A stretch of 64,000 bases of DNA from Paramecium tetraurelia (Eukaryota). The stretch is taken from NCBI GenBank assembly GCA_000165425.1, contig CT868007.1, positions 186,001 through 250,000 of the forward strand, in the 5' to 3' direction. A program made the translations under genes and the position numbers. The notes under the pieces are model-generated. The model searched no databases. It worked only from the letters and a program-made list of their open reading frames with translations, and was not told the DNA's origin. Of this stretch, positions 11,939 to 17,530 are shown in pieces; the first letter of the stretch is position 1; every line of letters begins with the position of its first letter.

Positions 11939-13290
<1,352 letters not shown>

Positions 13291-13346
13291 TTTTAAAGTG
13301 CTATGTGATGAAAACTCTCTAAAAAAATTATTTGAATTTCAGCAGT

Positions 13347-14466: not shown

Positions 14467-15730
14467 ATGGATAAGAAAGTTTCTAAAAAGCTCAAAAATT
14501 TTGAAACAATGAATTGGTTGAAAAACCGATTTAAGAATTAGGTTAGGGAAAAATATATCCTAAATGACTAAGAACTCAAGGAACAAATCATGATGAAGGC
14601 TGTTTTCAAATCCATCGATAGAGACAAGTCAAGTTACATTTTATTTTTTCACCTTATGTTTAGAATTCTTAGATAGGTCAGAACTCTATGATATGTTCAA
14701 ACGATACGGCATCAACATCACTAAAACCAAGTTGAAGGAGTTTTTTAAAAGAATCGATCAAGACGAAGACGGTAAACTCATCATTTAATCTCAGACAAAC
14801 TCAATTGGAATGATTTCAAATAAGCCTTGCAAAACCAAGAAGCATTGTAAAGTAAGTTGTACCTGTTAAATCAATAGTGTTTGCCGAACTCATGAGAAAG
14901 GTAAGAGAATCCTCGGAAAAAAAAGGAAAAGTAGAAGAATTGAATTTCATCCCCTTGAGTTTTCCCAACATGATTCAATACATGAATTATTGTGTATTAA
15001 GAGAAGAACTTATTCAAAAGATCAACTCTAATTAGTTAAATGCTCAATAGAAGATTAAATAATGCAAGAATCTGTTATCTTTGGAGGATATATGCTATAA
15101 TAAGGTTGTTGAGTTAAAAGATGATAATGATGACGACTAGGAAGAGGCTGCCTTCATTAAGTCAGCTAAGAAATCTTATGATCATCAATAAGTTGCTATT
15201 TTACGAAGGTTGTAAGAAAAAGAATAAATTGAATAACGTCAAGTAAAAATTAATTTTAGGTATTAGAGTCGCTTACGAAGATTAAGTACATCATAGTATT
15301 ACAGAACTGATAATGAAAAAAATAATAGATCATTAAGATAAAAGAGCTGTCAATTCAACACTGATAAGAATTAAAATGCCCAATCAGAATTTAAGTAAAT
15401 TGACCAGTTAATTTCTGAAAATCGCAAAGATCTTCCTGCTATTAAAAATGACATCTAGTAAAAAGTACAGATTCCTATGTTAATGTCAGAAAGAATATAT
15501 GAAAGTGATACTCCTTACAAATACAATCAGAAAGGCAAGGATTCTTCTATTCCAGAGATTCCTAAAGGGCAGCACTTCATGACATAGAATCTTATTGTAA
15601 TTAATTAATATTAATCTTATAGAGTCTCAGAACACAATCCAAGTCATCTAATAGAAAACAATAGATTTCGAAAAGTAGAATTAAAATGCTGTCTTAAACA
15701 GAGTTACCCAAAAATTTAAATAAAAGATGA
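14467..15730 (+). CDS. EF-hand protein (one pair, N-terminal)
   Basis: VFKSIDRDKSKFLDRSELYDMF and FFKRIDQDEDDKLNWNDF after removing short introns. Long low-complexity tail; TGA 15728-15730. Confidence 0.75.
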
Positions 15731-15804
15731 TATGGAATATCTGAATTTCAAATTGATTTTTATAAGGATATTTAATTTTCAAATGATTTATTAGAATAAT
15801 CCAT

Positions 15805-16886
15805 TCATTTTCCTTACTTCGGTTAGATATTTATCAGCATGGATATCTAAATTCTATTTGCTTTTTGTAATATCTTTTTGTGTCTATTTGATATTTGGTT
15901 TGAATTTATTGAGAAATATCAATTAATTTTCTGAATAATTTAATTATGAATTCCAAAATTCCTAAAACTATTAATTAAAATTACAAATGTTTTATAATAA
16001 CTTTCAAGTTCTAATTTTCTTGCACTAAACTCTTTATCGATTCTATCAAATTCAGCGTATACAAGATCCCTTCTTCTTTAAGTATCCACGCCAGAAACAG
16101 CAAAAGAAATCTAATATATAATATACTTCAAAACCCAATCGGCAATATCTAAAAATGCTCTTGTGTATTTTGGATCCGAGAAGACCTTCTGGAATTAAGG
16201 ATCAGCTTTCATTTACAATAATAGGTTCTCTTTTTCTGAGCTGACCCCTTTAAATTAAAAATTGGCTAATCTGCTTTAAAAATCACCTCCTTTATCCTAA
16301 TCAAAACTATTAATTAATAATTAATTCTTACACTTTTTTCTTGAATTCAGTCCAATTAAATTTACCTTGATCCTCATTGTAAACAATTGAAAATAATTGT
16401 GCCATGAATTGATCCATCCCTTAAGGTAGCTGACCAATCTTATTTAACTCTTTAATGTCAATCTACCGTTATAGATATTTCAATACTTTCGAACAAGTTT
16501 CTTTCATAGCAGTTGAAACTGAGTCAATAGCCTTTTAGAAGGCAGATAATTCATCCTTCTTTCCTTTTTTATAAGTTTCCGCTTTTTTCATTTTGTCCTA
16601 TTTATAGAACTATCTAATACCTATTCTGATTATATCTTTTCGTTCAACTATTTCACAACCTTTTATATGGCTGTCTTATGCTCCAAGAGCAACTCTTCCA
16701 ACCCATCGCTTTCCTCTTCTACTCTATTGCTAGATAAATTGTTTACTTTTGAAAATCTTATAGTTCCTATTTTAAATATAAATCAGTCTAAGTAAGATGA
16801 TTGACTAGTGCTGGTGAATAAGTTTGCATCAAGTAATCGTGAAGAACTTGGCATTTTGTTTCATTTTGCTGGATTACAACTTACAT
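15805..16886 (-). CDS. Small coiled-coil protein with a dynein stalk/MTBD-like central region
   Basis: Five inferred 22-25 nt introns give one ~320-aa frame. Core: IDIKELNKIGQLPQGMDQFMAQLFSIVY..FNWTEFKKKVF..DFQSRLANFQFKGV..MKADPQF..AFLDIADWISFA, flanked by heptad-like helices. The gene is well supported; the domain call is inference. Confidence 0.6.
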
Positions 16887-17530
16887 ATTTAGAATTAAAA
16901 TAATGAAAGTTCTAATTTTAGAATCAATTATATATTGATAAAAGTTTTAATTCTGTTCACTCATAATTTCTCCCCAATAACAATATTCAATAAAAAAAAG
17001 AATCCCCATAAATAAAATTTGTTGTTTTCTTCTTTTCTTTCTAAATTACATAATTGACTTAGTAGTTAAAGTTAAAAGTTGATTCTACAATAGATATCCA
17101 TTTTTATTTGAAAAATATATTTTAAGAACTAAAAATGAGGAAGAACAATCGATTCAAGACATCCCAAACTTTAACATCATAACTAAATTTTCCTTTTATA
17201 TTGTCTTGAAAAGTATTAGAACATATACAATTATCTTGATTTTGATTCAATTAAGTGCATTGCAAGTAGATTAAGATATCCAAATAGGTTTAATAAATTA
17301 AAGAGTATTTGCAATATATCCTAAGATTCACACAGAATTGGTTGAAATACTTATATTAATAAAGAGACAAAACTAATATAGGTTTGATTCCAAAAAAAGG
17401 ATTCATAAATTTGTATATGAATCCTTTTAGTTAAATGATGGATATTTATAGGAAGTTGGAAATGTAGGTGAGAGGGAAAGAAGGAATTAATATATAAAAA
17501 TATTAATATATTTTAAATCTTTAATTTAAA

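Follow-up and report, generated by a model that had tools for sequence, protein, structure and literature searches.

A 64,000-nucleotide stretch of Paramecium tetraurelia DNA (the window; positions are counted from its first letter) contains a gene whose product is probably an excised dynein heavy-chain stalk without the AAA+ ring, likely serving as a passive microtubule tether or spacer, or else filling the dynein site. We assign this reading a probability of about 0.6. Four features together favor a protein that derives from the dynein stalk and its microtubule-binding domain (MTBD), stands free, and is maintained in ciliates: the predicted fold, a size of about 320 to 350 amino acids throughout the family (close to the 344 positions of the Pfam dynein stalk family, PF12777), the concentration of conservation in the head, and the lack of any longer relative.

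To our knowledge, the dynein stalk and MTBD have been described only within the giant motor chain, and isolated forms only as laboratory chimeras. In a full-text search of the literature, covering main texts, no account of a naturally occurring dynein stalk/MTBD protein that stands alone was found. Nor did we find a main-text mention of the Tetrahymena ortholog (TTHERM_00766510, I7LXQ8, XP_001025411, EAS05166).

RESULTS

A seven-exon gene encodes a 321-residue protein

Several features of the window indicate a Paramecium-type nuclear genome: it is AT rich (24 to 38% GC), introns are tiny and bounded by GT..AG, and TAA and TAG occur in frame, pointing to NCBI translation table 6. Read with this table, the minus strand contains a coding region of seven exons (15779..16886; 966 nt, 321 codons plus the stop) that begins with an ATG at 16886-16884 and ends with a TGA at 15781-15779. 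Removal of six introns yields a product of 321 aa and ~38 kDa, in line with the ~320-aa reading frame proposed from the sequence alone. The frame includes 22 in-frame TAA or TAG codons (15 TAA and 7 TAG) and zero in-frame TGA codons. All of the peptides that the sequence-only reading had quoted (IDIKELNKIGQLPQGMDQFMAQLFSIV, FNWTEFKKKVF, DFQSRLANFQFKGV, KADPQF, and AFLDIADWISFA) occur in the minus-strand table 6 translation.

The introns, all on the minus strand, are short. Introns 1 (16724..16746) and 2 (16598..16620) are 23 nt each and run GTA..TAG. Intron 3 (16463..16486; 24 nt, GT..AG) lies at the boundary between the first long helix and the head, intron 4 (16307..16331; 25 nt, GTA..TAG) within the head, and intron 5 (16111..16134; 24 nt, GTT..TAG) within the last head helix; intron 6 (15962..15984; 23 nt, GTA..TAG) follows. 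Introns 3 and 5 are in phase 0 and lack an in-frame TGA, and retention of either keeps the frame and adds 8 residues. In a 25-sequence alignment the transcript-derived homologs of Furgasonia and Pseudomicrothorax have no insertion at either site, and both 24-nt stretches are therefore genuine introns. Intron 6 and the actual stop, at 15779, were recognized from the C-terminal frame of the orthologs, with which the frame downstream of intron 6 agrees. The sequence-only reading had five introns of 22 to 25 nt and placed the 3' end of the gene at 15805. Its tiny introns stand, with the number corrected to six and the sizes to 23 to 25 nt, and its 3' end does not, as position 15805 is reached in a frame other than that of the orthologs. 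Intron 6 is probably the one that was overlooked.

The spliced product aligns without gaps to the 321-aa annotated proteins of four other species, with identities of 95.3% (306/321) in P. octaurelia, 83.8% in P. primaurelia, 72.0% in P. sonneborni, and 66.0% in P. pentaurelia. The P. bursaria ortholog is 320 aa long and aligns with one gap at 51.4% identity. When a query of one exon plus read-through was compared with longer proteins only, 4 of 67 candidates matched, all of them 321-aa Paramecium proteins. Given the intact frame, the lack of an internal TGA, and the gapless ortholog alignment, the gene model, as judged from these sequence comparisons, exceeds what chance would be expected to produce.

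RNA evidence at the locus is sparse. Two oligo-dT raw-read runs (X21 and X22) place one read pair and zero splice joints in the gene body, and the neighboring gene has only 1 to 5 reads. In runs X4 and X5, contig sets guessed to be RNA, contigs cover the 3' end of the neighbor only. Across twelve runs also guessed to be RNA (X3 to X14), 0.43 to 0.56 of the sampled words of 15600-17100 were found, roughly the exon share; such a half-share is the expectation for a spliced transcript, yet X4 and X5 did not show one.

Gene surroundings and absence of a motor

Pfam searches detected no AAA or dynein domain in the protein and no AAA or dynein family in 24 stretches of the window, comprising 6 neighboring stretches and 18 further long-ORF stretches. 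The six AAA+ modules in one polypeptide by which a dynein heavy chain is recognized are absent from the 321-aa protein. Together with family matches of at most 392 aa (see below), these scans bear out the earlier view that the gene has no AAA ring and stands among unrelated neighbors. A tblastn search with the protein revealed no second copy of the gene within the window (best other match, E=0.98).

The convergent neighbor, on the plus strand, carries an EF-hand match and ends with a TGA at 15728-15730. This stop is only 48 nt from that of the stalk-like gene, and the two 3' ends almost meet. The last intron of the neighbor (15597-15622; 26 nt, GT..AG, plus strand) is passed over in one contig of run X4 and in one of run X5. 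On the other side, the next gene recognized by Pfam encodes ribosomal protein uS8. An alpha-tubulin gene (11939-13338, minus strand; Pfam Tubulin, E=5e-52) lies ~2.4 kb away, with no functional link implied; it occupies two overlapping frames, which implies one short intron. Further long ORFs in the window match guanylate cyclase, LRR, protein kinase, C2, and Myb domains. The segment 5304-8522 (plus strand) encodes two tandem adenylate/guanylate cyclase catalytic domains (E=1.6e-12 and 4.2e-47), and such paired domains are a feature of large ciliate cyclase genes.

The predicted fold resembles a dynein stalk

An AlphaFold2 model was built for the ortholog P0001, which is 95.3% identical to the window protein, from a 25-sequence alignment (pLDDT 90.9, pTM 0.64); the AlphaFold2 training set includes dynein stalks. 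The model consists of a long helix (residues 2-117), six short helices (121-125, 134-146, 155-165, 169-176, 185-195, and 198-203), and a second long helix (207-317). Transferred to the gene, on the minus strand, residues 1-117 would form an outgoing CC1-like arm (16490..16886), residues 118-226, identified from the model, from conservation, and from the match of MTBD-only structures to model residues 88-244, a globular MTBD-like head of short helices that also takes in the start of helix 207-317 (16090..16489), and residues 227-321 a returning CC2-like arm (15782..16089).

Foldseek searches of the PDB with the P0001 model returned 43 matches at E<=1e-3 (best, 3.9e-6). All 31 matches listed of these 43 are dynein or chains of 2,730 to 4,591 residues from axoneme entries that contain dynein, and among the matches listed the alignments span 265 to 344 columns. 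The crystal structure of an entire stalk, 3wuq, was matched with TMq 0.59, TMt 0.69, and rmsd 4.8.

A search independent of Foldseek, using VIA-align against 48,161 representative PDB chains, also ranked dynein stalks at the top. The stalk and MTBD of a human inner-arm dynein (8i3j_A) came first (Z 15.5, 261/277 residues aligned), followed by an entire dynein stalk (5ayh_A; Z 14.8, 249/254 aligned); 3wuq, when realigned, reached Z 15.2 and covered residues 31-297 of the model. These scores have to be read against the Z of ~13 to 14 that helical models attain from arrangement alone. An SMC arm (Z 12.9) and chemoreceptors (Z 11.4 to 11.8) rank after the dynein stalks, so that the margin of dynein over generic hairpins is only 2 to 3 Z units.

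Chains consisting of the MTBD only superpose on the P0001 model within residues 82-253. These are 6rzb_C (Z 11.8, rmsd 3.0 Å, 145/149 residues aligned), 6rza_X (Z 11.0, rmsd 3.5 Å, 144/163), 6kio_M (Z 10.3, rmsd 3.2 Å, 125/130), and 3j1t_A (Z 9.8, rmsd 4.0 Å, 162/164). For 6rzb_C and 6kio_M, 96 to 97% of the chain is aligned at an rmsd of 3.0 to 3.2 Å. We also noted that residues 434-610 of 7jtk_C, from a Chlamydomonas radial spoke 1 structure, align to residues 78-254 of the model (Z 10.3, rmsd 3.0, 171 residues). This segment covers the head and flanking coils, and its match is comparable to those of the MTBD-only dynein chains.

A second model, of the environmental protein P0013, was computed from a six-sequence alignment without Paramecium (pLDDT 83.4) and has an identical helix pattern. 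All 29 Foldseek matches listed for it are dynein, at a higher rmsd than for P0001. A two-copy (homodimer) complex prediction gave a score of 0.00 and no answer, and is uninformative on oligomeric state.

From these models, the predicted fold, a CC1/CC2-like antiparallel hairpin whose tip carries six short helices as a compact head, is well supported. The proposal of a stand-alone dynein stalk/MTBD-like protein, which had been made from the letters of the sequence, is borne out at the level of fold by AlphaFold2, Foldseek, and VIA-align. The comparison suggested at the time, prediction of the structure followed by Foldseek, recovered a six-helix head on a coiled-coil hairpin, and dynein was the best match in two independent searches. 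The sequence-only reading would have been abandoned had a Pfam stalk match and the fold both been lacking; the fold is present, though the Pfam match is missing.

Relatives of similar size occur in other ciliates

An HMMER profile of four Paramecium proteins was searched against 1.84 billion representative proteins of any length. There were 51 matches at E<=1e-3 (17 at <=1e-10 and 3 at <=1e-30), with E values from 5e-112 to 1e-3. The longest of these 51 matches is 392 aa, and no dynein heavy chain is among them. Family members of about 260 to 400 aa occur in Paramecium, Tetrahymena, Furgasonia, and Pseudomicrothorax and in environmental records; a search for same-sized orthologs in other ciliates had been among the checks proposed with the sequence-only reading. 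Beyond the four query species, the named members are from P. bursaria, Tetrahymena utriculariae, T. thermophila (TTHERM_00766510, 406 aa), Pseudomicrothorax dubius, and Furgasonia blochmanni, those of the last two species being derived from transcript assemblies. The remaining full-length members come from Logan, JGI, or ENA records, on contigs of ~1 to 5 kb and one of 93.6 kb. Additional word-indexed protein searches with alignments gave 7 and 8 matches and no further named taxa, and scans of metagenome contigs with the six-sequence alignment and with the P0013 query gave zero confirmed loci. The family dates back at least to the divergence of oligohymenophorean from nassophorean ciliates.

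The window protein shares full-length colinear similarity with this family and has the conserved head, including Y146 and W155, in addition to its 95.3% identity to P0001. Both residues are invariant (25/25) in the family alignment, and F158, D166, and D170 are nearly so. The head is the best-conserved region within Paramecium as well as family-wide: Paramecium identities over residues 118-226 are 92, 87, 86, and 59%, versus 82, 69, 62, and 56% for CC1 and 79, 59, 46, and 39% for CC2. A basic residue is kept at K122 in 20/25 members, at K159 in 23/25, at R174 in 24/25, and at K195 in 20/25. The net charge of the head is 0 in the window protein and ranges from -7 to +4 across the family, being mostly negative in relatives.

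Two further motifs were observed outside the head. A C-terminal [VI]Px[NST][IL]Y-like motif is found in 13/25 members, and a GDxFY-like motif lies ~35 to 45 residues from the N terminus in many members; both are degenerate in Paramecium and map to the hairpin's open end.

Profile searches give a marginal link to dynein

The stalk family PF12777 was not detected at E<=10 in any of the four Paramecium proteins (P0001 to P0004) or in the exon pieces of the window, so that the Pfam match foreseen in the sequence-only reading did not materialize. Among 55 family members scanned, one matched: Furgasonia P0017 (E=1.5e-4), at 21.4 bits, which is below the gathering cutoff of 24 bits. Residues 105-280 of this protein align to positions 74-254 of the 344 in the profile.

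A profile of 25 family sequences was compared with PDB sequences and gave 48 matches at E<=10, of which three are dynein heavy chains of 9y6s. The best of these is the IDAa heavy chain 9y6s_6k (E=0.0016, residues 3215-3349 of 4511); in the 9y6s alignment, the family 'DFxxRLxNFD' segment and the last head helix fall on the stalk-tip region of the heavy chain. The top match of the search was a myosin coiled-coil fusion, and a coiled-coil bias is therefore present. No dynein was found in the PDB with a Paramecium-only profile, and a 4-sequence nassophorean profile matched 3err at E=0.96 only, ranked under spurious recombinase matches. Taken alone, these matches make a weak case, and sequence homology to dynein is not statistically established by them.

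Language-model neighbors from the ESM Atlas serve only as leads. Of the 30 neighbors of the whole protein, 29 are clusters that carry PF12777. At the top stands a 324-aa 'hypothetical protein' cluster (score 0.94) with PF12777 on 25% of its members; its few taxon-labeled members, again only a lead, are mostly haptophytes. For the head alone (residues 112-232), 28 of 30 neighbors bear PF12777, with a top score of 0.93. Evidence at the level of the head comes from this query and from the MTBD-only PDB chains aligned to the complete model.

DISCUSSION

Proposed origin and role

Homology of the protein to dynein is probable, and we infer both its descent from dynein and its binding to microtubules. 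The gene would most likely have originated when part of a dynein heavy-chain gene was duplicated, and selection would since have kept it. Its product is predicted to be a hairpin with arms of ~115 and ~110 residues and a head that would be the counterpart of the dynein MTBD, docking on the microtubule lattice in the manner of dynein's foot. Lacking an ATPase ring that could shift its arms, a stand-alone hairpin is expected to have a fixed registry and to bind constitutively. The hairpin would project from the lattice and offer its open end to a partner; docking of the open end on a partner is suggested by the extra length of the hairpin and by the C-terminal motif conserved in many relatives. 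On ciliary or cortical microtubules, the protein would most likely serve as a passive tether or spacer or keep the dynein site occupied. Pointers on microtubule binding conflict: the conserved basic positions K122, K159, R174, and K195 stand against a net-neutral head. As calculated from the sequence, a net charge of 0 is not obviously favorable to binding of acidic tubulin.

Alternative explanations

The protein may instead represent a dynein-derived fold that has been repurposed, with a head that no longer binds microtubules and has another partner, in a coiled-coil adaptor unrelated to the lattice. The head charge of 0 here and its mostly negative values in relatives would fit such a history, as would identities to dynein MTBDs of only 9 to 16% in structural alignments and the failure of the Paramecium proteins to match PF12777. 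Set against these points, conservation is highest in the head, its basic positions are kept in most members, and structures of microtubule-bound MTBDs superpose over 96 to 97% of their length; we consider repurposing a plausible but unlikely account. The same resemblance could in principle be convergent, the protein being an unrelated ciliate coiled-coil hairpin with a helical cap and with neither ancestry nor function in common with dynein. The HMM-level matches to dynein are marginal and many unrelated hairpins score Z 10 to 13 against the model, yet dynein stalks come first in VIA-align, which is independent of Foldseek, and MTBD-only chains, despite having little coiled coil, align over 125/130 to 145/149 residues. 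The head alone draws clusters with PF12777 (28/30 Atlas neighbors), and the HMMER alignments to PF12777 and to the heavy chain land on the expected part of the stalk, which makes convergence, in our judgment, decidedly unlikely.

That the locus holds no working gene, only the decayed remains of a dynein heavy-chain gene or an artifact of annotation, we regard as highly improbable. A single read pair in the gene body from two oligo-dT RNA runs would suit that explanation, but coverage of the neighbor is likewise low (1 to 5 reads) in the identical runs, the reading frame is unbroken and has an ATG and a TGA of its own, a length of 320 to 321 aa is kept in five further Paramecium species, conservation peaks in the head, and assembled transcripts exist in Furgasonia and Pseudomicrothorax. 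More speculative, and quite improbable, is a pair of ideas that depart from a duplicated stalk with a passive role. Instead of being a recent branch of a ciliate dynein gene, the family could descend from a free-standing type of microtubule-binding hairpin that was later inserted into AAA4 to form the dynein stalk, and it could then be a living relative of dynein's foot that predates its motorization. This is compatible with the 9 to 16% identity to dynein MTBDs, the age of the family relative to the ciliate split, and the haptophyte-leaning Atlas cluster, the last being a lead. In a milder version the protein would be a natural constitutive foot, which could occupy the dynein/kinesin site on selected microtubules and so gate motor traffic or dynein-driven sliding.

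Significance

If the excised-stalk reading is true, dynein's foot has been recruited as a passive microtubule-associated protein, in parallel to 'dead' kinesin-like proteins. The protein would then provide a small native system for understanding how coiled-coil registry sets affinity without an ATPase ring. On the microtubule arrays of ciliates it could serve to mark the dynein site or to compete for it, and it would also bear on the origin of dynein's stalk insertion. The question is directly testable in two genetically tractable ciliates, Paramecium and Tetrahymena.

Comparison with known systems

In the published description, the dynein MTBD comprises six short helices (H1 to H6) carried by an antiparallel stalk of CC1 and CC2; the tubulin intradimer interface is its binding site, and a ring-controlled shift of CC1 by half a heptad switches its affinity (PMC6629372). 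Compared with the dynein stalk and MTBD (PF12777; 3wuq, 5ayh, and 8i3j), the modeled protein would have in common an antiparallel hairpin of ~100 residues per arm and a head of short helices. The whole model superposes on entire stalks (Z 14.8 to 15.5, 249 to 261 residues), and its head superposes on the microtubule-bound MTBDs 6rzb, 6rza, and 6kio at an rmsd of 3.0 to 3.5 Å. The differences are also clear. The dynein stalk is an insertion in an AAA+ heavy chain of >4,000 aa, whereas the Paramecium protein is free-standing, 321 aa long, and, unlike dynein, without an ATPase to shift the coiled-coil registry; identity between the two is 9 to 16% in structural alignments, and the Pfam threshold is not reached. 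The predicted hairpin extends past the entire stalk 3wuq by ~30 residues N-terminally and ~24 C-terminally. In comparison with the flap-bearing MTBD of axonemal dyneins, which has an insertion (the flap) between H2 and H3, the modeled head has only an 8-residue loop (147-154) after its second short helix, and a flap seems to be absent.

Among generic hairpins, SMC arms (5xg2 and 5nnv) and the cytoplasmic domains of chemoreceptors (3g67 and 2ch7) also have a long antiparallel hairpin (Z 11 to 13), but they lack a helical head and score 2 to 3 Z units under the dynein stalks. Among dynein-based systems, the engineered seryl-tRNA-synthetase-MTBD chimeras (the 3err and 6rzb constructs) have a dynein MTBD carried by a fragment of stalk and separated from the motor, the arrangement predicted for the Paramecium protein. 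Synthetase-MTBD constructs bind microtubules with the registry fixed in the high-affinity form (PMC6629372). The chimeras are laboratory-made, with a chosen fixed registry and a foreign base, whereas the Paramecium protein is the product of a natural gene. The converse case, with no known link to the present family, is DNAH12, described as a mammalian dynein heavy chain without a microtubule-binding domain (PMC11949491). On that description DNAH12 is a motor without a foot and, as the stalk-like gene would be, a natural instance of the uncoupling of motor and foot.
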